Source: an uncultured cyanobacterium (GTDB lineage Bacteria; Cyanobacteriota; Cyanobacteriia; Cyanobacteriales; CAWCAG01). Taken from it: 64,000 bases of DNA. Numbering within the stretch: the first letter of the stretch is position 1; every line of letters begins with the position of its first letter. Below the pieces are notes generated by a model. It saw nothing but the letters and a program-made list of their open reading frames with translations. It was not told where the DNA came from and did not search any database. The DNA is taken from NCBI GenBank assembly GCA_963793425.1, contig CAWCAG010000005.1, positions 2,102,720 to 2,166,719 on the forward strand. Direction: 5' to 3'. Below, piece after piece: positions 3,243 to 45,777 of this stretch. The position numbers and the translations under genes were made by a program.

Positions 3243-4097
3243 ATGACGAATAAAAATACAATTTGGGATCGCTTTTTGTCACCGATTGTACGCTCTTTAA
3301 TTGATGAAGAGAAGCTAAGACAGTTTTATGAATCGATAGACTGGGAAAATGAAGGTGATCGCTTCCGACAAGCAGATTTAGTTTATCCTCAATATTATGT
3401 TTCCCAAAACTTCCACGGTATTGACAAAGGCTACTTAAATCCAGGAGCAGCAGTTTCTTATGATCCAATCACTCGTTACGTCTTACCTCCCCAAGAAAAT
3501 TGGGTACGCACTGAGGTGATCGCAGCGATAAAAGGACAACCGCAACGGATTCTGGATTTAGGTTGCGGTACAGGATCTACTACTTTGATGCTGAAGCAGG
3601 CTTTTCCTCAAGCAGAGGTGAGGGGATTGGATTTATCACCTTATATGCTATTCATGGCTGATTATAAGGCTCAACAAGCTGGTTTAGAGATTAACTGGCA
3701 TCATGGTAAAGCAGAAACAACAGGTTTTGCTGCTGATTCTTTTGATGTAGTCACCGCTTCTCTGCTTTTTCATGAAACTCCTCCCCAGGTTTCTCAACTT
3801 ATTCTCAAAGAATGTTTCCATCTTTTGAAGGCAGGGGGGCAATTAGTTATTTTAGATGGCAACCAAGCTATGTTACGTAGTGCAACATGGCTAACAGAAA
3901 TTTTTGAAGAACCCTACATTAAAGCCTACGCCGAAGGGAGTGTAGATGCTTGGAGTGGTGCAGCGGGTTTTGGGGCTGTACAAACAGAAAATTTTTGGCT
4001 TATTCATCAAATAACTTCTGCGGTTAAGCCTTTAGCCATTCAGGAACAGGAGCAAGTGAGAGAAAACTTCAACGAACAGCAAGAAGCTGTTCGTTGA
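3243..4097 (+). CDS. class I SAM-dependent methyltransferase
   Basis: ILDLGCGTG motif I, GLDLSPYML, LLFHETP. Confidence 0.88.
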   Translation: MTNKNTIWDRFLSPIVRSLIDEEKLRQFYESIDWENEGDRFRQADLVYPQYYVSQNFHGIDKGYLNPGAAVSYDPITRYVLPPQENWVRTEVIAAIKGQPQRILDLGCGTGSTTLMLKQAFPQAEVRGLDLSPYMLFMADYKAQQAGLEINWHHGKAETTGFAADSFDVVTASLLFHETPPQVSQLILKECFHLLKAGGQLVILDGNQAMLRSATWLTEIFEEPYIKAYAEGSVDAWSGAAGFGAVQTENFWLIHQITSAVKPLAIQEQEQVRENFNEQQEAVR

Positions 4098-4140
4098 AGT
4101 TTTCATTACATCTAATTTTGTAGTTCAAACCGCTCTCCAG

Positions 4141-4188
4141 CTCCCCATCTCCCCATCTCCCCATCTCCCCATCTCCCCATCTCCCTAT
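4141..4188. repeat. 8-bp tandem repeat (CTCCCCAT)x5 plus one imperfect copy
   Basis: Directly visible in the intergenic sequence. Confidence 0.92.
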
Positions 4189-4192
4189 TTCT

Positions 4193-4915
4193 ATGACTTT
4201 AAAGGCAGTTTTATTTAATTTTAATGGCGTTATCATTAACGATGAGTCCATTCAGGAGGAAGTAATTGGAGAAATTCTCTTGCAAGAAAACTTACGTCCG
4301 GATATTAAAGACTATCGAGAAGTCTGTTTAGGCAGGAGTAATACTAATTGCTTAAGGGAGATTCTGCAACTGCGGGGCCGCACTGTTACAGAAGCTGAAC
4401 TTGATAAACTGATTGTTAATAAGTCTGCCCTCTATCAGCAAAAGCTAGAAACTCTTGAAACAATCCCTACTTATGATGGTTTGCAGGAATTTTTACAACA
4501 GTTGCAAGAAGCTGAACTGAAAATTGCTTTAGTAACAGAAGCTTTGCAAAAGGAAGTAGAGACGGTACTTAAGCTTGGCAACCTGGGAAGCTACTTTGCT
4601 GTCTTTGTCAGCGCTGATGAAGTTTACAACAGCAAACCAGCACCCCATGGTTATTTATTAGCGATGGATAAACTCAACCAGAAATTTCCTGACTTGCAAC
4701 TACAAAAAGAAAACTGCTTGGTTATTGAAGATACCCTAGTTGGTATTGAAGCAGGTAAAAATGCTGGTATGCAAGTAGTTGGTGTTGCGAATACTTACCC
4801 ATTTCATATGCTCCAACGCCAAGCTAATTGGACAGTAGATTACTTTAAAGAGCTAGAATTGGAGAGGATTCAAGAAGTATTTGCTAATCTCGGCCAAGCT
4901 ACGCTCACAAGCTAG
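4193..4915 (+). CDS. HAD family phosphatase-like protein
   Basis: LFNFNGVI (motif I variant), SKPAP, VIEDTLVGIEAG. Confidence 0.85.
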   Translation: MTLKAVLFNFNGVIINDESIQEEVIGEILLQENLRPDIKDYREVCLGRSNTNCLREILQLRGRTVTEAELDKLIVNKSALYQQKLETLETIPTYDGLQEFLQQLQEAELKIALVTEALQKEVETVLKLGNLGSYFAVFVSADEVYNSKPAPHGYLLAMDKLNQKFPDLQLQKENCLVIEDTLVGIEAGKNAGMQVVGVANTYPFHMLQRQANWTVDYFKELELERIQEVFANLGQATLTS

Positions 4916-4960
4916 CAGATCCGCAAGAAAGCAATTGACGACAAAACTTTAACTCAAAAG

Positions 4961-5437
4961 CTACTCTAACTTAGTGATCTCAACTGTAGAATCATCCTCT
5001 CTTTTGAAATTAAACACCTCAACTTCTGCATAGGTTTCTATCCATAACCTCGCTCCACCATACTTGGCTTTATCGTAGCTATAGGTTAAACGACAGGGGC
5101 CATAGATATCTACTTCATGTCCATAATGATTAGCTTGGTTGTGCTTAACACTAATCACTGCCTCTAACTCTTCGAGCTTGGTCTTCTTCTTATTACGAGA
5201 GATTGCTCCTCCGTTAACATGAATAATCTTCACCGGACCAACACGAGGTTGACACCAACGAGGAGCGGGTCCTCTTGTACCACGAGAAATCTTTGGTTTC
5301 CCTTTAAACAAAGGAATAGCCCAAACCTTACCAATCTTATAAGCCCCTTTAAAGCGGCGTTGTTGTAACAAATAGACAACTCGGCGAGGAGTTATCTTCA
5401 ACATTGCGGCAGCTTTCCTGGTATCGATATATTGCAT
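4961..5437 (-). CDS. putative DNA-binding protein with an N-terminal excisionase/MerR-like HTH
   Basis: IDTRKAAAMLKITPRRVVYLLQQRRFKGAYKIGKVWAIP fits an HTH_17-like pattern. Confidence 0.65.
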   Translation of the reverse strand: MQYIDTRKAAAMLKITPRRVVYLLQQRRFKGAYKIGKVWAIPLFKGKPKISRGTRGPAPRWCQPRVGPVKIIHVNGGAISRNKKKTKLEELEAVISVKHNQANHYGHEVDIYGPCRLTYSYDKAKYGGARLWIETYAEVEVFNFKREDDSTVEITKLE

Positions 5438-5567
5438 GAGAGGAAGAGTTGAAAAAACTATTCTGAGTTATGAATATATAAAGATGATAGCAAGCTTTGA
5501 TTTGGTTTAATACCAAATCCAGCCCCTATACCCTTGCCTCTTACTGTTAAAATAAAAGAGATTATGG

Positions 5568-5640
5568 GGGGAATTAGCTCAGTTGGTAGAGTGCTGCGAT
5601 CGCACCGCAGAGGTCAGGGGTTCGATTCCCCTATTCTCCA
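5568..5640 (+). tRNA. tRNA-Ala (CGC)
   Basis: GGGGAATTAGCTCAGTTGGTAGAGTGCTGCGATCGCACCGCAGAGGTCAGGGGTTCGATTCCCCTATTCTCCA; anticodon CGC. Confidence 0.96.
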
Positions 5641-5658
5641 TCTCGTTTATTGGTGGCT

Positions 5659-6054
5659 TCAAACAGGAAACCATTCTCGTACCAGGGGTTCTCCGTCTGA
5701 GCTAGAAGCATCATCAATCCAGCTTAAACCCAGTTCCTTTTTCCCAGGAAGATGATATATGTCTGGTAAAGTAGCTTGAAAATTTTTCTCATAGCGGCTT
5801 ACCATAGTTTGCCAATACATAATAACTGCGGCTAATTCCCTCGCTTCTGGCTCTCTGCCAATTTTGTCTCCCATAAACGACAAAGCTAACTTCTCAAACT
5901 TATTCTGATTGAAAGCTTCGTTTTCAATTTCTACTTGCTTAGGAATCTGAGGGGAAGAGGATTTTGCTGAGTCGTTGGGAAACTGAGATAAATAGGAATC
6001 TTTTTGCTGGCTTGCTCTATTTGAAGATGATGGTCTATGAATTCTTTTTGGCAT
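5659..6054 (-). CDS. hypothetical protein resembling the low-complexity N-terminal leader of cyanobacterial DUF4157 effector proteins; probably a fragment
   Basis: MPKRIHRP start and EIENEAFNQNKFE segment recalled from such leaders; no DUF4157 core present. Confidence 0.45.
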   Translation of the reverse strand: MPKRIHRPSSSNRASQQKDSYLSQFPNDSAKSSSPQIPKQVEIENEAFNQNKFEKLALSFMGDKIGREPEARELAAVIMYWQTMVSRYEKNFQATLPDIYHLPGKKELGLSWIDDASSSDGEPLVREWFPV

Positions 6055-6493
6055 CTTGCTACCTTACCACTTGTCTTAGTTATGAGCATATACTCTCATT
6101 TTTCTTCTTGCTCCTCTCTATAAGTAGTAAGTCTACTACAGTTCTCTATTAGTGGTGAAGGAGAGACTTTCTCTGTGATTTAGAAGTTTTAAGAGCAGAC
6201 AAAAAGATAATTGACTTGTCTTATTAAGCTCTTTCTCTAGTATTGGCCCGCTTATAAAGTGCGATCGCAGTTGATCCTGTTTTAATCCCATCAAAGAACT
6301 TCAAACAATAGCTGACTTTTTATCAGAACGTTTGTTCTAATTTTTTTCTGAAATTAAGCTTTTTCTTGATTTAGTCACCTTCTTTGCGGACATTTTCTAG
6401 CCAAATTTTAACTTCAGAAGGACTTTTGTCTAGCAAACTATTTGCAGAGCAATTCACGATTTATATTGCTTCACCTTCCGCTTTTCAAGAAAC

Positions 6494-6820
6494 TTATATT
6501 ACTTCTAACTCAAAAGAAACGCTTTCAATGTCCCAGCTTATCCATGCCCAAGGTTGCTTTAGTACTCCTTCAATGACAAATGCTTCTACATCTTCATTAG
6601 GTTCTATGAATGGCCCATCTATTACTTTGCGACCAGGTTTTCCCTTCTGTTTCCCTCCACTATCTATGTAATATTCATAAATAAAACGCTCTGATTTTCT
6701 GACTCCTTGGAAAATTAACTTTCCTTTTGGCATAATCAAGGGCTTATCTTGATTGTTTAAAGGATGCTCTTCATATGTAAAGCTTACTTTTCTACAAGTA
6801 GATAGTTCATATATCTCCAT
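6494..6820 (-). pseudogene. N-terminally truncated immunity-like protein, paralog of 9383-9778
   Basis: Shares YEEHPLNN..PLIMPKGKLIF..EGVLKQPWAWISWDIESVSFELE with 9383-9778 but lacks its first ~35 aa. Confidence 0.6.
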
Positions 6821-6982
6821 AATTTAGGTTGCTTATTTATACACATCTGACTTAGAGCGATACCAGGGAGTGGGCTTCTCCTTCCACCAGACGCTACGCG
6901 TTTGCGCCAGCATTGTCGTAAGACTACGCCTACGCACTTCATGTAGTTCTCGTAAAATGCGATCGCACTAAAGCTAAGGGAG

Positions 6983-7618
6983 TTAAGTTAATCCAAGATT
7001 TTTGCTCAGGTTAGGCTCACTCACACGATAAACTGATTCTACTGGTGTGAGTAAATGTGACCGATTCCGAACTAAGCGATTTGGATATTGCTGATGCACA
7101 AACTCGGAGATATTTTGGATATCAACAATCCAATCTCGTGCATAATGAGATAAAAAACGACCCTGTAATCCCAACTGAATAGCACGTCGTTCTACCTTCA
7201 TTTGACAGGGATCGTAATCAGGGTCCCATTGCAACCGAACCTGAGATCGCTTGACGGCTTGTTGCCATTCATCTTTACTAGAATAAAGTTTTGGTACATA
7301 TTGGGAAGGGACAGCAGCAGCTAAAATCTTCTCAAAAGCTTTTCGTTTAAGCCAGATAGCTAGCACTACTTCTTGTCCTGGTTTTGTTCCCCATCCTGAG
7401 CGATACATCATCCAGAGGAAATTAGTTTTAATCCAACTCATGCGGTTAAAACTGAAGTCTCCGCCGAAATAACCATGTTCAGCAGCAAAGCCTCCGATAG
7501 CTGCATTGAAAGCTTGGTAGACTACAACAGTATTTTCGTCAAACTGAGCCATAATATGACGACCTGATGTAGGCCAACAACTAATTTGCTTCAGATATAG
7601 TTCTGTCAATAGTTTCAT
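6983..7618 (-). CDS. DUF4291 domain protein
   Basis: VVVYQAFN, RMSWIKTNFLWMMYRSGWGTKPGQE, VRLQWDPD and RRAIQLGL motifs. Confidence 0.85.
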   Translation of the reverse strand: MKLLTELYLKQISCWPTSGRHIMAQFDENTVVVYQAFNAAIGGFAAEHGYFGGDFSFNRMSWIKTNFLWMMYRSGWGTKPGQEVVLAIWLKRKAFEKILAAAVPSQYVPKLYSSKDEWQQAVKRSQVRLQWDPDYDPCQMKVERRAIQLGLQGRFLSHYARDWIVDIQNISEFVHQQYPNRLVRNRSHLLTPVESVYRVSEPNLSKNLGLT

Positions 7619-31217: not shown

Positions 31218-34200
31218 ATGGCCAAACTAGTAATCCTCGATTTTGAAGGTGACTTGCCTCAAGGTGTAGCAGTCACCATGGAAATTCGTGAGGATAATAT
31301 TGGTGCTTTTAGTCAAATCCGGGCTAAGGGAAAGTTGCCCCCTGCCCCTTATTTAGCAGAGGAATATCAACATTGGCAGAGCCTGTATCGTAATTTGGCT
31401 TTCCTGTTTCGTTTAGAAGATCGTTCTTTGGGGGCAAACAATGGTTCCGATGGGGGAAGTGTTGAGGAATGTCGCCAAGCTGGAGAAATTTTAGCTAAAA
31501 GTCTCAATAATTGGTTGAAAAGCGACTCCTTTCGTCCGATTTGGGAAAAGTTATTAGAAAAGCTTCAAAGTCGGGAAATTATTAGATTAATTTTACAGGT
31601 AGAATCTTTACCTTTGCGCCGCTTGCCTTGGCATCTGTGGGAGTTTTTCAACCGTTATCCTAAAGCAGAATTAGCCCTTAGCGCCCCAGCTTATGAACGG
31701 GCAGTAACCAGAAAACATCAGCGAGAACATAAACGTATTTTAGCAGTTTTCGGTAATTCTCAAGGCATTGATGTTGCAGCAGACCGCAAATTGTTAGCTA
31801 GTTTACCTGCGATCGCCGAGACAGTTTTTTTGCTGGAACCTCAACCCCAAGAGTTACATCATTGGTTATGGGATGAACAGGGTTGGGATCTACTTTTTTT
31901 TGCCGGACATAGTGGTAGTGATGGGGCAGGAAAAAAGGGGACAATTAAGCTTAATAGCCGGGATTATTTGAGTTTAGATCGCTTAAGTAATGGCTTGAAA
32001 ACAGCTATTTCCAGGGGTTTACAGCTAGCCATTTTCAATTCCTGTGATGGCTTGGGTTTAGCAAAAGAGTTAGAGACTTTGCATATTCCTCAAATCATTG
32101 TCATGCGGGAACCTGTACCTGATGTGGTGGCACAGGAATTTTTGAAATACTTCCTGGCTGCTTTTGCGAAGGGCAATTCTTTATATTTAGCAGTCAGGGA
32201 AGGGAGAGAGAAGTTACAAAGTCTGGAAGAACAATGTCCTTGTGCCACTTGGTTACCAGTTATTTGCCAAAATCCGACGGTGGAACCTTTAGCTTGGCAG
32301 CCTCTTTCTGATGAGACAAGCATTCCCTGTCCCTATCTTGGTTTAGCCGCTTTTCGTGAACATGATGCAGACTATTTTTTTGGGCGAGATACTTTTACCA
32401 ATAGATTATGGCAAGGTGTACACCAGAAACCTTTGGTAGCAGTAATTGGCCCTTCTGGTAGCGGTAAATCCTCGGTGGTTTTTGCCGGGTTGATTCCTCG
32501 CTTACGAAGTGAGGGAAATTGGTTAATTGTCGCTTTTCGCCCCGGCGATCGCCCTTTTATTAAATTAGCAGAACAACTCATCCCTTTCCTAGAAACACAA
32601 TTAAGAGAAACAGAACAGTTGATTGAAGTTGGTAAGCTGGCTACTGCTTTACAACAGGGAAACATAGAACTTACTACGGTAGTAGAACGTATTCTCTCTA
32701 AATATCCTCAAGCAGAAAAACTACTTTTAGTTGCAGATCAGTTTGAAGAAATTTACACCCTCGCCTCTCAAGGTGAACATCTGCAACCGGAGGTTGCTTC
32801 CTTAGATACTTTAGTTACTAGCTGCAAACCCCAAGGAAAGTTGACTTTGATCTTCACTCTCTGGGCTAATTTTTTTGAATATGTCCTTTCTTATCGCCCC
32901 TTAGCAGAAGCTTTGTATAAATATAACCCTGAACTTCTCGGTCTCATGAACTGAGAGGAGTTGCAGGAAGCAGTGGAAAAGCCGGCTACGGAATTGGGGG
33001 TAACTATTGCCCCCGGTTTAACTAAGAGGATTTTAGATGGAGTGGGAGAAGAGCCAGGCAATCTACCCTTATTAGAATTTGCTCTCACTCTGCTTTGGGA
33101 GCGTCAAGAAGACCGTTGTTTAACCCATCAGGCTTATGGGGCTATTGGTGGGGTGGAACAGGCTTTAGCAAGCTATGCAGAGCAAATTTATAGCAACCTG
33201 AAACCTGAACACCAGCAACAAGCAGGAGAACTTTTTACTCAATTAGTGCGACCAGGGGAAGGAACTGCTGACACCCGCAGGGTGGCAACAGAAGCAGAAG
33301 TTGGTGAGGATTTATGGGTTTTGGTTAACCATTTGGCCCAGACTCGTTTGGTGGTGACAGGGCAAGATGAAGCCACAAAGAGCAAAACAGTGGAAATCGT
33401 CCACGAAGCTTTAATTCAAGAATGGCAAAGATTGCGGCAGTGGTTAGAAGAAAATCGTCACTTCCGTATTTGGCAAGAAAGATTAAGAATGGCTTTGCAG
33501 CGTTGGGAAAGTAGCGATCACGAAGTTGGTTTTTTGTTGCAGGGTACACCATTATTAGAGGCGAAAAGTTGGTTGCAACAAAGGTCATCTAGCCTGAGTT
33601 ACCAGGAACAAGAGTTGATTGTAGCTAGTTTAAATCAGCAGGAACAAGCCCAAAATCACTTAGAAAGCCGCCGTCGCCGTACCACAGCCTTCCTCACTAG
33701 TGGTTTGGTGGGCGGTTTTTTATTAGCGGGGTTTGCTACTTTGCAGTGGCAACGGGCAGAAATGAATGAGGTAGTGGCGCAACTTAATGCTGCTACGGCT
33801 TCAGTGGAAGCCCAATTTGCTTCTAACAAAGAGATTGAAGCCTTACTTGCTAGCTTGAAAGCAGCTAAGCAGTTGCAGCAATCTAGGGGTACTCAACCTG
33901 ATACAAAGATGCGTATTGTAGCCACCTTACAACAAGTTATTTATGGTATTCGGGAGTATAACATTTTAGAAGGTCATGAACGCAGTGCTATTAGTGTTAG
34001 TTTTAGTCCTGACGGTAAGCTAATTGCTTCTGGTGGTGATGATGCAACCGTGAGAATTTGGCAGCGAGATGGTCGAGGAATTGCTACTTTAAGAGGCCAC
34101 GAAGATAGTATTAGGAGTGTAGCTTGGAGTCCTGATGGTAAGTGGCTGGCTTCTGGTAGCTATGACAAAATCATTCAACTTTGGCGCTTAGATGGTACAT

Positions 34201-35305
34201 TGCTAGCAACTTTGCCAGGGCATACAGGTTCAGTAAATAGCCTAAGTTTTAGTGACGATAGCAAATTACTTGCTTCCGGGGGAACTGATGCCCAAGTTAA
34301 GTTGTGGCAGGTGAATACAACTACAGGAAAAGCTACCCTTTGGCAAACCCTATCTGCCCATGAAGGGAAAGTTTGGGATCTTAATTTTAGTCCTGATAGT
34401 AATCTCCTGGCTTCTGCTGGGGCTGACAAAACCATCCAACTTTGGGAAATAGATACAGCAAAGCTAGAAATCAAACCCCTAGAAGCCTTGAAGGATCATA
34501 ACTCTTCTATTTACAGTGTAGCTTGGAGTCCTGATGGCAACAGCATCGCCTCTGCTAGTGCAGACACAACTATTAAACTCTGGCATCCTCGTCTGCAACC
34601 CTTAAATAAGTTCACTGAACACGAAGCAAAAATCAGGGATGTTGCTTTAAATCCAGAAGGAACAATGATTGCCTCCGCTGATGAAGCCGGAATTATTAAA
34701 CTGCGATCGCTAAACAATCCAGTTTCCGTACAAACTATTCAAGGACATAATGATGTAATTACTCAAATTACTTGGCTACCCAATGGGAAAAATTTCGCTT
34801 CTGCAAGCTTAGATGGAACCATCAAACTTTGGCAAAGTAATGGCCAGTTAAAGGTGAACTGTTACGAACTTTGAAAGGTCATACCAATCAAGTTAGAAGT
34901 ATCGTCTTTAGCTCTGACAATCGCCTTATTGCTTCTAGTAGTGATGATCATACTATTAAGTTATGGAGTCTTCAAGGAAGCTTATTAAAAACTTTGAGAG
35001 GACATGAAGGGGGAGTTAATAGCCTTAGTTTTAGCGCTGATGGTAAAAGTCTTATCTCCGCTAGTGACGACGGTATAGCGATTCTTAGGCTAGTGAGGTA
35101 CAGCCTGGTTTTTGCGCTTTGGCTAGTGGCTAGTGGAAATGTACCTCATCAGTCCGAGAAAGGCTATATAATAATTACTTGGAACCTAGATTTAACTGAC
35201 TTATTTAACCAAGGTTGTACCTGGTTAAAAGATTATCTCCACAACAATCCTAATCTTAGTCAGAGCGATCGCCGGGTGTGTGATTCTGTTGTTAAGTATC
35301 CCTAA
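31218..35305 (+). pseudogene. CHAT protease - STAND NTPase - WD40 repeat protein, disrupted
   Basis: CHAT dyad FAGHS / FNSCDG; CPYLGLAAF..FFGR; GPSGSGKSS; DQFEE; LPLLEFAL; WD40 repeats. In-frame TGA at 32952, frameshift near 34855, MITE at 35074. Confidence 0.88.
35074..35168. mobile_element. miniature inverted-repeat element with TATAGC/GCTATA ends, inserted in frame
   Basis: TATAGC..TGAGGTACA and TGTACCTCA..GCTATA inverted arms; removing 93 nt restores DDGIIITWNL. Confidence 0.8.
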
Positions 35306-36784: not shown

Positions 36785-37892
36785 TCAGTAATTAGCTTCA
36801 AAAACACAAACAGATTTATCAACTGGGCAAATTGGCTGTGCAATAGGATTTTCGGAAAGGGAAAGCCAACTTAGATTAGTTAATCCTGATAGAGAACTGA
36901 CAGTTATGATTTGATTGCGATCAAGGATAAGTTGCTTTAGGTTTATGAGTTTTGCTAGAGGGGTAACATCTGTAATTTGATTGCGATTAAGGTCAAGCTT
37001 CTCTAGATTAGTGAGTTCAGTCAGAGGTTGAATATCTGTGATTTGGTTGCCTGGGAGGTAAAGTTCTTTCAGATTTGAGAATTCTGCTAGAACACTGATG
37101 TCCCTAATTTGATTAAAGCTGAGGTTAAGGTACTCTACATCTGCAAGTCCCGTTAGAGGAGTGACATCAGTAATTTGATTGCCCCAAATGGCAACCGTCT
37201 TGAGATTAATAAGTCCTGTTAGAGGGGTGACATCTGTGATCTGATTGTGATTGAGATTGAGGAATTCTAAATTTATTAGTTTGGCTATAAGGTGTTAGAT
37301 TAGTAATTTCGTTGAGTCCCAGACCAAGTTCTTCTAAATTTGTAAGTCCTGCTAGAAAAGTAATATTCGTAATTTGGTTATTAGTAAGGCCAAGTTTTTC
37401 TAAATTTGTGAGTTTTGCCAGAGGACTAAAATCTATAATTTGATTACCGAAGAGATAAAGTTCCTCTAGATTTGTAAGTTTTGTCAGAGAATTAATATCT
37501 GTAATTTGGTTATCACCGATATTAAGGAACTCTAGATTTATAAGTTGTACCAGAGAACTTGCATCTTTGATTGTGTTAGTGCTGAGATCAAGCAACCTTA
37601 GATTTGTGAGTGTTGCTAAAGGTGTAACATCTCTAATTTCCTTATTACTGAGATCAAGTTCTGTAAGGCTTACTAACTCGTTATTAGCTAATTCACAATC
37701 AGTTGTTCCTGCTTTCTCTAACAATACATCTACAGTTTTTCTTGCTGCGGGTGACAAATTCGCTTTTTGCAGACACCATTGTTGAAAAGAACTTCCTAAA
37801 CGGGGATCAGCCGCTTGAGTTGCTTGTGTTCCCCAGGCAGTAAGCATTAATGTACTCAGTATCAAAACAGCCTTGCTAGTTAATTTCGCCAT
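36785..37892 (-). pseudogene. secreted internalin-like LRR protein (13 repeats), 1-nt frameshift near 37289
   Basis: Signal peptide and WC..C cap; the shifted frame continues IAKLINLEFLNLNHNQ..ICPVDKSVCVFEANY*. Confidence 0.85.
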
Positions 37893-37951: not shown

Positions 37952-38077
37952 TTATTCGGTTGAGAATGGGTCAAAAACACAAACCGATTCATCTAATGGG
38001 CAAACAGTGTTTGTAAGAGGATTTTTTCTCAGGAAAAGCCAAGTTAGATTGGTTAATTCTGACAGAGAACTAACATT
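37952..38077 (-). pseudogene. 3' remnant of an LRR gene (last repeat and C-terminal cap)
   Basis: Translates as NVSSLSELTNLTWLFLRKNPLTNTVCPLDESVCVFDPFSTE*. Confidence 0.8.
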
Positions 38078-39100: not shown

Positions 39101-40001
39101 TTAGGGTCTTAGACTTATGTAATCATCCTCAGCTGATGCAGTTCGGTAAGGATAGGTACAATTCGTGCCTGTAGGCAAGCACCACTGATAGTAATCCAAT
39201 TTTCCTCTTGTCAAAGTAAGTGGAGAACCGCTTGAGTTTTTAGACATCAAAACACCACCATCAACTCCAGCCATGCACCATATATTCATAAAGGGGCAAA
39301 TGCTTTCTTCTACCTCTTGCCACGATATAGCTACAGAAGTGGAACTAGCTGGGTAGAACGTTGGGTTATTGTAGGGAGTAAAAAACCATATTCCTTTGTA
39401 GGTCAGGCTATTTACAATAGCTTGAGCATTCCACGTACCAAAGCCAAAGCTGCTTTTGGAACCAGGATCGGATACTCCAGCAGTTGGGCAATCATCATAG
39501 TGAGGTTGTGGAAGATTATTGTAGGTGGTGCAACTACCGAAGTAGTTCCACTCAACTGTCATATCCATCTCAAAAGCAGGATTACTTTTCTCCCAATCGC
39601 CTACATTAAACCATTTGAAGTATGAGTCTGCATACACATCTCCATCGTAATAAATATCTCCATTATTAGGATAACGTTTGATAGGAGGATATGCTGAGGA
39701 AGGAAAAGTTGAAATAATCAGTTACTGACATGAAGATAGCTTTAGGCTGAACATCGTAGCGTCGCATGATCTGAAGGAGGCGTGCATCAGGAATACGCTG
39801 GGCAAAAAAGATGCCAGCAGGAATAGGCTCTGTTGGACTAATCCTAAGCCATTCCTCAAGCCGTTCTGTTGGTGTTCGAAGTACTTGTGTTTGGGAGTCC
39901 AATGGGGTTTGCGCTTTAACTAGATTTGAACTAAGGATAATGAAGCCGGCAAAAAGCGCTGTAACGACTGCTGTGAAGAGACGTTTTTTATTTCGAGTCA
40001 C
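39101..40001 (-). pseudogene. secreted Cys/Trp-rich hypothetical protein split across two frames
   Basis: Signal-peptide ORF 39666-40001 overlaps a second frame that runs into 39101-39637. Confidence 0.5.
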
Positions 40002-40429: not shown

Positions 40430-40624
40430 CTAGATGAGTAAGGTCAAAGTAGGGTAGACCTTAGTTTTTCTTACCTCGGTTGACAAGTTCGCTTTTTGGA
40501 AACACCACTCTGTAAAAGAACTCCCTAAGCTTAGTTCAGCCGCTTGAGTAGCTTCTGTTCCCCAACTGCTGAGTGTTAATAAGCCCAGGATTAAAGCAGC
40601 CTTGCTAGTCACTTTCACCATCAA
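40430..40624 (-). pseudogene. 5' remnant of an LRR gene (signal peptide and half of the N-cap)
   Basis: SWGTEATQAAELSLGSSFTEWCFQKANLSTEVRKT, then unrelated sequence. Confidence 0.82.
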
Positions 40625-40668: not shown

Positions 40669-41907
40669 TTAGTTGAGTGGTGATTCAAAAATGCAAACAG
40701 ATCCATCTAATGGGCAAACTGTGTTTGTAAGAGGATTTTTTCTCAGGGAAAGCAACTGAAGATTGGTTAATCCTGACAGAGAACTAACAGTTGTGATTTG
40801 ATTGTTATCAAGAGAAAGCAACTGAAGATTGGTCAATCTCGCCAAAGGAGTAACATCGGTAACTTGGTTTTCTCTGATAATAAGTGCTTCTAGATTAGTA
40901 AGTCCTGCTAGCGGAGTAAGATCCGTAATTTGATTTTCTTCAAGGTAGAGTGTCTCTAGGTTAGTAAGTTTCCCTAGAGGAGTAAGATCCGTAACTTGAT
41001 TTTCTTCAAGGGAAAGTATCTTTAGATTAGTGAGTTTCTCCAGCATACTCATATCCCCAATTGGGTTGTTATCAAGGTTAAGATGCTCTATATTTAAATC
41101 CACTAAAGGAGTAACATCTGTGACTTTGTTGCTCTCAAGGAAAACTTTTTTCAGGTTAGTGAGTCCAGCTAAGGGAGTAACATTAGTAACTTGATTATCG
41201 CTGAGATCAAGTTTCTCTAAATTTGTAAGTCCGGCTAAAGGGGCAATATTAGTAATTTGGTTATAAAACAGATAAAGAGACTCTAAACTTGTAAGTTCAG
41301 CTAGAAAACTGATATCCGTGAGTTCGCTACCATGGAGATCAAGTTCTTCTAAATTGGTAAGTTCTGCCAAATCACTGAAATTTTCGATGCGGTTACTGTG
41401 GAGGTGAAGAGACTTCAGCTTTGTAAGTTTGGTTAGAGAATTAACATCAACGATTGGGTTAAAGCCCAGACTGAGTTTCTCTAGATTCGTAAGTTTCCTC
41501 AAAGGCTTAATATCAATGATTTGATTGTAGCTGAGGTTAAGTTCCTCTAGATTCGTAAGTTTGCTTAGAGAATCGATATTTGTAATTCTGTTAAAGGTCA
41601 GGTCAAGTTTTTCTAGATTGGTGAACCCAGTTAAAGGGGCAACATCTCTGATTTTGTTGAAACTAAGGTCAAGTTCGCTGCGGCTTAACAACTCATTGTT
41701 AGCAGATTCACAATCAGTTGTCCCGGCTTCCTCTAATAATATATCTACAGTTGTTTTTGCTTCGGTTGACAAGTTTGCTTTTTGCAGACACCACTCTTGA
41801 AAAGAACTTTCTAAACTGGGGTCAGCAGCTTGAGTTGCTTGAGTTTTCCAAGCAGAAAGTACTAATGTACTCAGTATTAAAACAGTCTTACTAGTCAATT
41901 TCGCCAT
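40669..41907 (-). CDS. secreted internalin-like LRR protein (15 repeats)
   Basis: 22-aa LxxLxLxxNxITDxxPLxxLTN units; WC/DC N-cap; CP..VC C-cap. Confidence 0.93.
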   Translation of the reverse strand: MAKLTSKTVLILSTLVLSAWKTQATQAADPSLESSFQEWCLQKANLSTEAKTTVDILLEEAGTTDCESANNELLSRSELDLSFNKIRDVAPLTGFTNLEKLDLTFNRITNIDSLSKLTNLEELNLSYNQIIDIKPLRKLTNLEKLSLGFNPIVDVNSLTKLTKLKSLHLHSNRIENFSDLAELTNLEELDLHGSELTDISFLAELTSLESLYLFYNQITNIAPLAGLTNLEKLDLSDNQVTNVTPLAGLTNLKKVFLESNKVTDVTPLVDLNIEHLNLDNNPIGDMSMLEKLTNLKILSLEENQVTDLTPLGKLTNLETLYLEENQITDLTPLAGLTNLEALIIRENQVTDVTPLARLTNLQLLSLDNNQITTVSSLSGLTNLQLLSLRKNPLTNTVCPLDGSVCIFESPLN

Positions 41908-42038
41908 TGGTATGTTTATTGTAATTTCTACTTGGTTGTCTAGTTGTTGGGTTCAAGCTTCATTTGAGTGCTGCTGAATAGACGTATGAACAAAACAGAT
42001 TATATTGATAATTTAAGGTGTAAAAGTTAGTTCAAGAG

Positions 42039-42743
42039 CTATAACTCAAAATCGCAAACTGATTCATCTACCGGGCAAGTTGACGATGTCAGGGGATTGC
42101 CTCGCAAGTTAAGCATACCTAGATTAGTGAGTCCACTTAAAGCAGTAATATCTGTAATTTGGTTGAAGCCGAGGTCTAGCCACTCTAGATTAGTAAGTCC
42201 ACTTAAAGCAGTAATATCTGTAACTTGATTGCTATAGAGTTCAAGACTATTGAGGTTGGTAAGTGGCCTCAAAAAACTGATATCAGTAATTTCGTTAAAG
42301 TTAAGATTAAGCCACTCCAGATTCGTGAGTATCGCTAGAGGAGTAGCATCTGTAATTTCGTTAAAGCTAAGGTAAAGCGCTGTAAGGTTTGTCAGTGTCG
42401 CTAGAGGGGTAACATCTGTAATTTTGTTATAGCTAAGGTGAAGTTGCTCTAAATTGGTGAATCCAGCTATTGGGACAACATCGGTAATTTCTTCGCCAAC
42501 AAGGACAAGTTCGCTACGGCTTGATAAATCTTGGTTAGCCGCTTCACAATCATCTGTTCCCGCAACTTTCAGTAGTAAATCGACAGTCTTGCTTGCTGCA
42601 TTCGATAAGCTATCTTTTTGCCGACACCACTCTTTAAAAGAAGTTCCTAAACTGGGGTCAGCAGCTTGAGTTGCTCGTGTTCCCCAAGCAGAAAGTATTA
42701 ATGTACTCAGTATTAAAACACTCTTACTAGTCAATTTCGCCAT
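42039..42743 (-). CDS. secreted internalin-like LRR protein (7 repeats)
   Basis: Same caps and repeat unit as its neighbours. Confidence 0.93.
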   Translation of the reverse strand: MAKLTSKSVLILSTLILSAWGTRATQAADPSLGTSFKEWCRQKDSLSNAASKTVDLLLKVAGTDDCEAANQDLSSRSELVLVGEEITDVVPIAGFTNLEQLHLSYNKITDVTPLATLTNLTALYLSFNEITDATPLAILTNLEWLNLNFNEITDISFLRPLTNLNSLELYSNQVTDITALSGLTNLEWLDLGFNQITDITALSGLTNLGMLNLRGNPLTSSTCPVDESVCDFEL

Positions 42744-42945
42744 TGGTGTGTTTATTGTAATTTCTAGTTGGTTGTCTAGCTGTTAAGCGCAATTTTCAAC
42801 TGAGCGCTGCTGAATAGATGTATGAGCCAAATAGATTACATTGATAGTCTCAGCGTAAAAGTTAGTTCCCTAAGCTAAGAGCTAATAACAGTATTACTTT
42901 CAGCTTCATACCTTGAATCAGCAACGCCTTCAATTGAGCTTGCGG

Positions 42946-44592
42946 TTACTCAAAAGTGCAAACAGATTCATCCACAGGGCAAGTTTGCTGTGTAAGAGGG
43001 TTTTCCCGTAGAGAAAGGTATTCTAGATTAGTTAGTCCAGCTAAAGGAGTAACATCAGTGATTTGGTTGTCGCCGAGGTCGAGGTACTCTAAATCTGTAA
43101 GTGCCGCTAAAGGGGAAACATCTTTGATTTGGTTGTCTTGAAGGGCAAGACCTCTGAGATTAGTCAGCCCAGCTATGGGAGTAACATCGCTGATTTGGTT
43201 ATTGTAAAGGACAAGGCTTTTGAGATTAGTCAAGTTAGTTAAAGGAGTAAGATCACTGATTTGGTTGTTGTCGAGAGAAAGGTATTCTAGATTAGGAAGT
43301 CCCGCTAGAGAACTCAGATCCGGAACAATAACCGTGATTTGATTCTCGCTTAGGTAAAGAAACTCTAGATTGATGAGTCTAGCTAAAGGAGTAACATCGG
43401 CAATTTGATTTTTGATTAAGTAAAGAGACTCTAACTTAGTTAGCCCAGCTAGGGGAGTAACATCAGTGATTTGGTTGTTGTTGAGGTTCAGTTCTTCTAA
43501 ATTAGTAAATCCTACTAGAAGGGTAAGGTCTTTAATTTCGCTGTCGGTTAGGGAAAGCGATCGCAGATTAGGAAGTCTAGTTAAAGAACTCAGATCCGGA
43601 ACAATACCTGTAATTTGATTCTCACTGAGGTGAAGAGACTCTAAATTGATGAGTCCGACTAGAGGTGTAACATCCGCGATTTGATTCTCGCTTAGGGATA
43701 GAGACTCCAAACTAGTTAGTCCAGCTATTGGGCTGACATCCTTCACTTGGTTTCTATATAAGGAAAGGGATACAAGATTGCTAAGGAGTCTTAAAGGAGC
43801 GATATCTACGATTTGGTTTGTTGCAATACTAAGTGTCTCTAACTTGACAAGTCCACTTAAGGAACTGATATTTGTGACTTGGTTTGCTTGAATATCGAGT
43901 CTCTCTAAATTGACAAGTCCACTCAGGGAACTGATGTTACTAATTTGGTTTTGGAAGAGATTAAGAGTATCTAGATTAACAAGTTCTTTTAGAGAGGTAA
44001 TATCTGTGATTTGGTTGGAGCCGAGTTCTAGCCACTCTAAATTAGTAAGTCCACTTAAAGCAGTAATATCTGTAACTTGGTTGCTAGTGAGTTCAAGACC
44101 CTTGAGGTTAGTAAGTGGCCTCAAAAAACTGATATCAGTAATTTCGTTAAAGCTAAGAGTAAGCTGCTCCAGATTCGTGAGTATCGCTAGAGGAGTAGCA
44201 TCTGTAATTTCGTTAAAGCCAAGCTCAAGTTTTGTGAGATTTGTGAGTATTGCTAGAGGGGTAACATCAGTAATTTTGTTCCCACTCAGATAAAGCTGCT
44301 CTAAATTAGTGAATCCAGCTATTGGGGCAACATCGGTAATTTCTTCGCTAACAAGGACAAGTTCGCTACGACTTGACAACTCGTTGTTAGCAGCTTCACA
44401 ATCATTTGTCCCAGCTTCTTCTAGCAGTGCCTGTACAGTCTTGCTTGCTTCGTCTGATAAGCTATCTTTCTGCAAACACCAATCCTTAAAAGAACTTCCC
44501 AAACTAGGGTCAGCCGCTTGAGCAGCTTCTGTTCCCCAAGCCGAAAGTATTAATGTACTCAGGATTAAAACAGTCTTGTTAATTAATTTCAC
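42946..44592 (-). CDS. secreted internalin-like LRR protein (21 repeats)
   Basis: Same caps and repeat unit; exact start uncertain. Confidence 0.93.
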   Translation of the reverse strand: MKLINKTVLILSTLILSAWGTEAAQAADPSLGSSFKDWCLQKDSLSDEASKTVQALLEEAGTNDCEAANNELSSRSELVLVSEEITDVAPIAGFTNLEQLYLSGNKITDVTPLAILTNLTKLELGFNEITDATPLAILTNLEQLTLSFNEITDISFLRPLTNLKGLELTSNQVTDITALSGLTNLEWLELGSNQITDITSLKELVNLDTLNLFQNQISNISSLSGLVNLERLDIQANQVTNISSLSGLVKLETLSIATNQIVDIAPLRLLSNLVSLSLYRNQVKDVSPIAGLTSLESLSLSENQIADVTPLVGLINLESLHLSENQITGIVPDLSSLTRLPNLRSLSLTDSEIKDLTLLVGFTNLEELNLNNNQITDVTPLAGLTKLESLYLIKNQIADVTPLARLINLEFLYLSENQITVIVPDLSSLAGLPNLEYLSLDNNQISDLTPLTNLTNLKSLVLYNNQISDVTPIAGLTNLRGLALQDNQIKDVSPLAALTDLEYLDLGDNQITDVTPLAGLTNLEYLSLRENPLTQQTCPVDESVCTFE

Positions 44593-44661
44593 TATTGATA
44601 GATTCTCATCGTTTAAACTTTACAGGAGTAGATACAGCCGTGACTTTGGTTGAGTTCAGGC

Positions 44662-45777
44662 TCATTCAAAAACACAAACAGTTGTAATATCATCTGGGCA
44701 AACTGTTTGTGTAAGAGGATTGTCTCTAAGGAAAAGCTGAACTAAATTGGTCAATCCTGATAGAGGGGTAGCATCGGTTATTTGGTTATCGTTGAGGTAA
44801 AGGAACTTAAGATTGGTAAGTCCCGATAGAGAAGCAACATCTGTAACTTGGTTTTCTTCTAGGTAAAGCTCCTCCAAATTAGTAACTTCAGCTAGAGGAG
44901 TAATATCGTTTATTTGATTGTCTTTGAGGTAAAGCACCTTAAGATTGGTAAGTCCTGATAGAAAAGCAACATCTGTGATTTGGTTTTCGCTCAGGTAAAG
45001 CTCTTCTAAGTTGGTTAGTATGCCTAGAGGAGCAACATCGGTGATGGGATTATTACCAAGGTCAAGCTCTTTTAGACTGGCAACTTCGGTTAGAGGAGTA
45101 ACATCGGTAACTTTGTTTTGATACAGGTTAAGGGTTTCTAGATTGGTTAATTTCTCTAAGGGAGTAACATCTGTAATTTGATTTAAACCAAGGTAGAGAT
45201 ACTTTAATTTTGTCAGTCCTGCTATAAAACTTACATTCTCAATTTCGTTAAGAATGAGGTCAAGTTGTTCTAAGTTTGTGAGTTTCGCTAAAGAACTAAA
45301 ATCGTTAATTTGATTGTTGCCAAAGTAAAGCCCCGTGAGATTTGTCAGTTTTGCTAAAGGGGTAATATCCTCAATTTGGTTTGAGGTGAGGCTGAGCTTT
45401 TCTAGATTAGTAAGTTTGCTCAGAGAATCAATATCTGTGATTTCGTTAGAGGCTAAGGAAAGTTTCTTGAGATTAGTGAACTCAGATAAAGGTGTAACGT
45501 CTACAATACCCTTATTACTGAGGACAAGTTTGCTACGGCTTGATAACTCTTCGTTAGCCGCTTCACAATCATCTGTTTCTGCAACTTTCAGTAGTGCATC
45601 TACAGTCTCGCTTGCTTCGTTTGATAAGGTATCTTTTTGCAGACACCATTCTTTAAAAGAACTTCCTAAACTGGGTTGAGCCGCTTGAGTAGCTTCTATT
45701 CCCAAATTGCTGAGTGCTAATAAACCCAAGATCAAAGCAGTCTTGCTAGTTAATTTCATCATAAGTGAATTACCCAT
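44662..45777 (-). CDS. secreted internalin-like LRR protein (13 repeats)
   Basis: Same caps and repeat unit; start probably at MMKLTSK. Confidence 0.93.
   Translation of the reverse strand: MGNSLMMKLTSKTALILGLLALSNLGIEATQAAQPSLGSSFKEWCLQKDTLSNEASETVDALLKVAETDDCEAANEELSSRSKLVLSNKGIVDVTPLSEFTNLKKLSLASNEITDIDSLSKLTNLEKLSLTSNQIEDITPLAKLTNLTGLYFGNNQINDFSSLAKLTNLEQLDLILNEIENVSFIAGLTKLKYLYLGLNQITDVTPLEKLTNLETLNLYQNKVTDVTPLTEVASLKELDLGNNPITDVAPLGILTNLEELYLSENQITDVAFLSGLTNLKVLYLKDNQINDITPLAEVTNLEELYLEENQVTDVASLSGLTNLKFLYLNDNQITDATPLSGLTNLVQLFLRDNPLTQTVCPDDITTVCVFE

Follow-up and report, generated by a model that had tools for sequence, protein, structure and literature searches.

Amino-acid differences concentrate on the predicted binding face of tandem leucine-rich repeat proteins in an uncultured cyanobacterium

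The stretch of DNA analysed here, referred to as the window, comprises 64,000 nucleotides (nt) of contig CAWCAG010000005.1 (assembly GCA_963793425.1, positions 2,102,720 to 2,166,719) from an uncultured cyanobacterium of the order Cyanobacteriales. Between 36.8 and 45.8 kb of the window, the minus strand carries a tandem cluster of genes for leucine-rich repeat (LRR) proteins, of which four are intact, one is frameshifted, and two are remnants (Table 1). Two neighbouring members, genes B and C, keep a nearly identical repeat framework and differ almost exclusively at the x positions of the LxxLxLxxN strand motif, five of which occur in each repeat.

Table 1. Features of the LRR gene cluster, in window coordinates (ORF, open reading frame)
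Feature	Position	Strand	Description
Gene E	36788-37892	-	Paralog with a single frameshift: N-terminal part 37206-37892, C-terminal part 36788-37294 in another frame
C-terminal LRR gene remnant	37955-38077	-	Only the last repeat and Cys cap
N-terminal LRR gene remnant	40430-40624	-	Putative signal peptide and start of the cap, then a stop; leader like that of gene C
Gene A	40669-41907	-	Paralog of 412 aa (ORF, Pfam); upstream leader like that of B
Gene B	42039-42743	-	234 aa, six 22-residue LRRs (ORF; Pfam LRR_4, E = 6.5e-31)
Collinear repeats 0-4, gene B	42144-42461	-	Codons 94-199 in gene C numbering (codon alignment)
Gene C	42946-44592	-	548 aa, GTG start, ~20 LRRs (ORF; Pfam LRR_4, E = 3.8e-109)
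Collinear repeats 0-4, gene C	43996-44313	-	Codons 94-199 (codon alignment)
Low-divergence tract, gene C	43996-44217	-	Codons 126-199; counterpart in B at 42144-42365
Gene D	44662-45777	-	Paralog of 371 aa (ORF, Pfam)

Once its first codon is dropped, gene B aligns gap-free with gene C, from codon 1 to about codon 200, at an offset of 1852 bp, which bears out the collinearity reported in an earlier note on this DNA, and the five pairs of beta-strand motifs quoted there are exact. The framework segments which that note had called near-identical are indeed so: EITDATPLAILTN and QVTDITALSGLTN are the same in DNA, and EITDISFLRPLTN is one synonymous base apart. Counted over five 22-residue repeats (repeats 0-4), differences between the two proteins fall at 13 of the 25 x positions and at one of the 81 framework positions (a T/I exchange; Fisher P = 4.0e-9), in agreement with the count given there. 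This concentration lies above the baseline of the family, in which between-repeat variability leads to an expected share of 39% at x (binomial P = 3.8e-5). The collinear gene of a sister species (assembly G001) gives a 54% share, with 20 of 25 x positions and 17 of 81 framework positions differing (P = 0.002). The sister-species comparison is saturated at x and uninformative on the ratio of nonsynonymous to synonymous divergence (omega); after correction for this saturation the expected share is about 0.68 (P ~0.03, by rough hand arithmetic). Positions 10, 12, 14-16, 18, and 19 of the repeat, all of which vary elsewhere in the family, are unchanged between B and C. The x codon changes are of many kinds (13 transitions and 10 transversions), and 5 of the 13 differing x codons carry two or three base changes each.

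The stretch is present in five sequencing runs, with no RNA run listed among them. Contigs assembled from metagenome runs match long pieces of B and C with 0 differences, and these runs may be the assembly's own source. Beyond cross-mapping of the paralogs, no population variation at x codons was found in the contigs of four runs, a form of data in which rare variants are invisible. In a single 179-nt contig of run X3 (window 44041-44219), the x codons are of the B type in repeat 2 but of the C type in repeat 3; bubble-popping in the short-read graph, rather than real B/C recombination, most likely produced it. Run X4 yielded further LRR contigs that are diverged and unplaced.

The intact copies share a common plan: the N-terminus is hydrophobic and ends in TQA/AD, the helical cap contains two conserved cysteines, the 22-residue repeats have the form LxxLxLxxNxIxDIxPLxxLTN, and a short C-terminal cap has the form NPLxxxxCPxxxxxCxF. 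Among the LRR genes of this genome, the spacing of the repeat units is 22 residues in 100 of 105 measurable cases. The only Pfam families above cut-off in A-D are LRR families, the rest being sub-threshold chance matches, and LRR_4 scores 106 bits in B and 355 bits in C at a cut-off of 27. The AlphaFold2 model of the gene B product has a predicted local distance difference test score (pLDDT) of 90.3, with low values at residues 1-26 and helices within residues 36-74. Its short strands (residues 100-102, 122-124, 144-146, 166-168, and 188-190) each span x3-L4-x5 of their motif, and the variable residues map to these strands. Internalin A (InlA) is the closest solved sequence match (E = 1.4e-76), a Foldseek search with the model returns InlA and InlB with a probability of 1.00, and the model superposes on the cap-plus-LRR domain of InlB with a template modelling (TM) score of 0.78-0.80 over its length.

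Motif period, profile score, and solenoid fold thus place the proteins in the 22-residue (internalin-type) LRR class. Pfam finds no immunoglobulin (Ig)-like inter-repeat domain after the LRRs in A-D, with B stopping 20 residues past its last repeat, and no surface anchor was found, either as an LPXTG motif in the translations (by eye) or as a GW module in Pfam. Because the Ig-like inter-repeat domain and the anchor are absent, the proteins resemble internalin LRR domains but stand outside the strict internalin family. The N-terminus looks like a Sec signal peptide. The earlier note had described a set of secreted binders, and this signal-peptide-like N-terminus, read from the sequence, is the sole basis for the word 'secreted'; the proteins would on this basis leave the cytoplasm, and the concave face of the solenoid may bind a ligand.

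The framework of the B/C pair is under strong purifying selection. By the Nei-Gojobori method, its nonsynonymous (dN) and synonymous (dS) divergences are 0.006 and 0.222, giving an omega of 0.03, and the maximum likelihood (ML) estimate is 0.025. At the x codons dN is 0.369, and dS within the x codons is 0.553, a value drawn from only 11.5 synonymous sites. The ML estimates come from a pairwise codon model in which the synonymous time is common to both classes of sites while x and framework have separate omegas. With a single rate, omega at x (omega_x) is 2.9 (P = 0.012), and with two rates, which allow for a mosaic, it is 3.5 (P = 0.011). The transition/transversion rate ratio (kappa) is fitted at 4.6-6.1 from few sites (~13 framework differences); with kappa fixed at 1-5 under two codon-frequency models, omega_x ranges from 1.9 to 3.2 and P from 0.13 to 0.009.

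Synonymous divergence is uneven along the pair, the proportion of synonymous differences (pS) in the framework being 0.326 over codons 1-93, 0.372 over codons 94-125, and 0.115 over codons 126-199. The last of these segments, referred to as the young tract, holds 5 synonymous differences, 0 framework replacements, and 10.0 nonsynonymous differences at x over 41.2 sites. Its counting ratio is 2.1 (one-sided P = 0.06-0.10), which becomes 4.7 (P ~0.01-0.02) in a narrower span, codons 126-181, with boundaries picked post hoc. Taken alone, the young tract gives an ML omega_x of 6.0 (P = 0.003), again with a boundary picked post hoc. On our reading, the x sites of the pair change no more slowly than neutral sites and probably more quickly, the pair on its own being moderate evidence.

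Binding-face diversification is clearer in sister arrays of LRRs than in the B/C pair. Two such arrays, at C7:1-2944 and C9:634433-635977 on other contigs of this genome outside the window, combine near-identical framework DNA (NEIKDITPVATLTN) with varying x codons. Among 41 array units, 11 have one identical 51-nt framework and display 10 different x haplotypes; similarly, 72 unit pairs show 0 differences in the 51 framework bases, and their 15 x-codon bases mostly differ at 2-5 places. Diversity in the arrays is 0.422 at x-codon positions 1 and 2 and, at third positions, 0.141 in the x codons and 0.133 in the framework, the last of these giving a ratio of 3.2 (bootstrap 2.5-4.3), and the array units that enter these figures are not independent of one another. 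In pooled Nei-Gojobori counts, the ratio of the proportion of nonsynonymous differences (pN) at x to framework pS is 2.06. The Goldman-Yang (GY94) codon model on a fixed tree gives an omega of 5.29 at x and 0.44 in the framework, with a likelihood ratio statistic of 18.6 relative to omega = 1 (P = 1.6e-5).

The signature extends to other genomes. Conserved-framework arrays in other genomes of the order have ratios of 3.4 (locus L004, genome G033) and 1.8 (locus L012, genome G017). In total, 14 of 16 loci have a ratio above 1, and the other two, at which synonymous diversity is saturated, have ratios of 0.92 and 1.01; the loci are not all independent, since L002 lies within L015, and L016 and L017 are near-duplicates. 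Matches to the LRR family occur in 32 of the 41 genomes searched, several of which have about 20 or more.

The arrays also have features of their own. Assemblies G000 and G001 both break contigs within LRR arrays of near-identical framework. Indels interrupt the second array gene on contig C7 (C7:1749-2146), three of +1 and one of -1, each within a G run of x codon 3, and there is one TAG as well. These could be consensus errors in a collapsed repeat or mark a real pseudogene, and slippage-type switching is conceivable.

The explanation we favour, with somewhat better than even confidence, is that B and C are birth-and-death paralogs in which selection acts in favour of differing concave, ligand-binding surfaces. 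B and C would be tandem members of a birth-and-death cluster of Sec-exported, internalin-type LRR proteins, in which recombination between copies has left a mosaic, including the younger tract across repeats 2-4. Strong purifying selection holds the structural framework (the Leu/Asn core and the NxITDxxPLxxLTN half), while each LxxLxLxxN strand gathers point substitutions at its five solvent-exposed residues, at a rate that equals or exceeds the neutral one, with selection presumably favouring paralogs of new binding specificity. Gene E with its frameshift, both remnants in the window, and the different gene number at the syntenic locus of the sister species point to birth-and-death evolution; at that locus, two LRR genes and an insertion sequence (IS) element lie beside a flanking gene that is 92% identical. 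This locus (L015, G001:C7:178000-196000) encodes, at its positions 3789-7397, an IS-type transposase ORF of 303 aa and LRR proteins of 345 and 462 aa, the latter from a gene collinear with C.

Several observations weigh against selection for new surfaces. By counting, omega_x is 0.67 when dS is taken from the x codons and 1.7 when it is taken from the framework, neither of which differs significantly from 1, and pN at x over framework pS is 1.5 (one-sided P = 0.15-0.23). The ML results lean on kappa, with omega_x falling to 1.9-2.3 and P to between 0.13 and 0.05 at kappa 1-2. Synonymous differences are nominally about three times denser in the strand-coding halves of the repeats (P = 0.05-0.12), a kind of result that the earlier note had named beforehand as a refutation. 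The limits of the young tract were set only after inspection of the data, and the array tests take recombining repeats as taxa on a fixed, approximate tree, so that their omega may be inflated. No sister-strain allele was found, the best homolog being at most 57% identical among 180 matches in a set of 5.8 billion proteins. By genome, the nearest named matches come from an uncultured Coleofasciculus (52%) and from Anabaena species (44-46%); the named relatives, which also include Microcoleus, Rivularia, and Dolichospermum, belong to the cyanobacteria.

An alternative is relaxed constraint alone, namely neutral drift of surface x residues that have little structural role beneath a conserved framework. 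This is the strongest of the rival explanations, a possibility to be taken seriously even though we consider it distinctly the less probable. Besides the non-significant counts and the weaker ML results at low kappa, it can appeal to the fact that x positions are the most variable in every comparison within the family, as they are in LRR proteins generally. Opposed to it are the ML estimates at fitted kappa and the omega of the sister arrays, in which nonsynonymous diversity at x is about three times that at third positions of the same codons. Positions other than x that vary in the family are also the same in B and C. Moreover, the x residues are not unconstrained, because proline, cysteine, and aliphatic residues are avoided: among 460 x residues there are 0 prolines and 0 cysteines, 78-79% are polar, charged, or glycine, and 15-16% are aromatic. 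The x sites are thus limited to a surface-type, paratope-like alphabet, yet evolve at or above the synonymous rate. Since such an alphabet excludes many mutations, drift explains a rate at or above neutral poorly. Diversifying selection, as the earlier note had proposed, accordingly finds moderate support in the ML analyses of the pair (omega_x 1.9-3.5, P 0.13 to 0.009) and stronger support in the sister arrays, while the counting tests remain non-significant.

The same note had offered patchwise gene conversion as a second source of the x differences, in which other repeats or paralogs would donate short strand patches. In its favour, both genes are plainly mosaic, the enrichment of synonymous differences in the strand halves would fit such copying, and when the sister-species gene is added to the comparison, it agrees with either B or C at 5 of the 14 differing residues. 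The x codons with two or three base changes also look like copied patches, but several changes per codon are expected without conversion because pN at x sites is ~0.29. A search of the 5.28-Mb assembly for exact k-mers of 14-27 nt found a donor for 0 of 10 strand patches, the longest matches being 14-16 nt and lying outside LRR loci. With 16 nt as the longest exact match to any patch in the rest of the assembly, conversion from extant donors is unsupported, even if contig ends at LRR arrays could hide donors. Tracts of ~20 nt, five times in register, would in addition be unusual, and we regard this source as improbable. Recombination instead appears as the mosaic of synonymous divergence; it homogenises the framework and does not create the x differences. 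Further signs of it are the pairings of leader sequences, B with A and C with the N-terminal remnant. The sequences 3' of B and 3' of C are 82.5% identical, and the N-terminal domains of all paralogs have similar dS values (0.39-0.85), on a par with the divergence between the two species at flanking genes (0.44-0.68).

It is very unlikely that B is a collapsed or chimeric copy created by repeat mis-assembly, as might be suspected from the frameshifts and contig ends of the other LRR arrays and from the hybrid contig of run X3. Overlapping contigs of run X1 cover 41950-44070 and 44190-44700 with 0 differences, and one 1733-nt piece joins B to C, although this support is not fully independent if the runs are the source of the assembly. 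B also has its own leader, its own caps, and an intact frame, and a hybrid contig is expected from bubble-popping.

Targeted hypermutation by a dedicated machine, whether a diversity-generating retroelement (DGR) or cassette assembly like that of the lamprey variable lymphocyte receptors (VLRs), can be set aside almost entirely: the variation is sharply limited to defined codons, and the fixed third bases of the sister arrays (x codon 5 is NAC and x codon 3 is NNG) had raised a DGR, but the 7 reverse transcriptase matches in the genome all lie far from LRR loci, none being in the window or close to the C7 and C9 arrays, the assembly holds no template, donor, or second copy of a patch, and the substitutions are of varied types rather than adenine-specific, the framework adenines being invariant. 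Cassette assembly was likewise rejected, as the ORFs are complete, donors are lacking, and the flanking remnants are decayed gene ends rather than cassette banks. Since the genes are complete germline ORFs that lack both cassette donors and a linked reverse transcriptase, the 'antibody-like' set of the earlier note was an overstatement.

Several further features surround the genes discussed above. Within gene C, a block of about three repeats is duplicated 92 codons apart (codons ~295-457, window 43222-43710), and two unusual 26-residue repeats are included; x positions are again enriched for differences (9 of 15, by eye), and loop positions differ too. Genes A and B have a common conserved leader of ~125 nt upstream of the start codon (within 41908-42038 and 42744-42945), and gene C (44593-44661) shares with the N-terminal remnant a leader distinct from it. 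Given these two kinds of leader, two promoter or leader types may serve the cluster; in a scan for promoters and terminators, the number of sites was not above that in shuffled sequence. The two remnants enclose ~2.3 kb of unrelated small ORFs without a Pfam match, of which 39101-39637 is Cys-rich and 39666-40001 is signal-peptide-like, and because the remnants flank unrelated ORFs, an insertion may have split one LRR gene. An ORF at window 32961-35305, a few kb away from the cluster, matches the C-terminal part of the nSTAND1 NTPase profile and continues into WD40 repeats, and is followed by a further WD40 ORF, an architecture that resembles that of NOD-like receptors (NLRs).

A fast-evolving concave face in an LRR protein usually marks molecular conflict or recognition, as in plant immunity, lamprey antibodies, and Listeria invasion. 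The signature is now seen in a predicted exported LRR family that is expanded across many cyanobacteria and has been little studied. In the searchable papers, as far as their text was accessible, no literature on the evolution of these cyanobacterial LRR proteins was found, and 'internalins' appear only in passing. A Nostoc preprint reportedly places 'internalin' genes in lanthipeptide clusters, which may bear on function. The pattern itself has long been known from plant resistance genes, so that the bacterial family is a new setting and the principle is not new; what the finding offers is therefore not a new mechanism but a way into a family and into an ecological question. In practical terms, the variable residues define testable paratopes, B and C form a natural pair for swapping specificities, and internally conserved arrays could act as natural scaffolds similar to repebodies. 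A bolder and doubtful proposal is that filamentous or mat-forming cyanobacteria maintain a germline recognition repertoire of exported LRR proteins, including arrays with concerted frameworks and five selected surface codons per repeat. If this were true, fungal het/NLR repeats and plant resistance (R) gene clusters would have an extracellular counterpart in bacteria, the family could discriminate phages, grazers, hosts, or non-kin filaments, and recombination in identical frameworks would shuffle binding modules among strains.

Among known systems, the Listeria internalins InlA, InlB, and InlH share with the cyanobacterial proteins the 22-residue LRR and organisation in multigene families, and would also share an N-terminal export signal and a helical cap. 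They differ in carrying an Ig-like inter-repeat domain and LPXTG or GW anchors, whereas B stops ~20 residues beyond its final repeat, in a two-Cys cap. The host, moreover, is a cyanobacterium rather than a Gram-positive pathogen.

A second point of comparison is provided by the repeat domains of fungal NLRs. The WD repeats of het-d and het-e are described, in the part of the study available, as combining concerted evolution with positive selection at a few surface codons (PMC1805685). A mode of high internal conservation is likewise reported for WD, ANK, and TPR repeats in fungal NLRs, with LRRs not found there in the part of that study available (PMC4986451). The C7 and C9 arrays, but not the B/C pair, resemble the fungal HNWD/NLR repeats in having near-identical unit DNA, a few diversifying surface codons, and units shared between loci; in B and C, adjacent repeats are of old divergence (pS 0.6-0.8), and between the repeats of the window genes pS is 0.58-0.62 in the framework and 0.70-0.91 at x codons. 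As in HNWD, a few surface codons in each unit have an omega exceeding 1, in the arrays (5.29) and in the ML range, with its P values, given above for B/C, and differences in repeat number and gene content are seen here at the species level only. Unlike the fungal repeats, the arrays are made of LRRs, are predicted to be exported, and lack a NOD domain.

Lamprey VLRs and the repebodies are alike in their capped LRR scaffold and in the variability of concave strand residues, and repebody chains are among the sequence matches (E ~1e-15 to 1e-16). Unlike the VLR system, the locus has no incomplete germline gene, flanking cassettes, or somatic assembly, and its diversity lies between germline paralogs. 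The closest parallel is offered by plant clusters of R genes and polygalacturonase-inhibiting protein (PGIP) genes, in which tandem paralogs exchange sequence between copies, pseudogenes occur, and a conserved LRR framework carries fast-evolving xxLxLxx residues. The cyanobacterial cluster resembles them in its pseudogenes, turnover of copy number, and exchange, in replacements that gather on exposed strand residues, where omega is 1 or more, and in purifying selection on the framework. It differs in consisting of small bacterial proteins, stand-alone 22-residue LRRs with Cys caps that are predicted to be exported; the NB-ARC or kinase signalling domain of plant R proteins is absent, and a pathogen ligand is known for none of them. 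Despite these differences, the mode of change is germline diversification of a multigene family, of the kind seen in plant R genes, and not an antibody-like somatic system.

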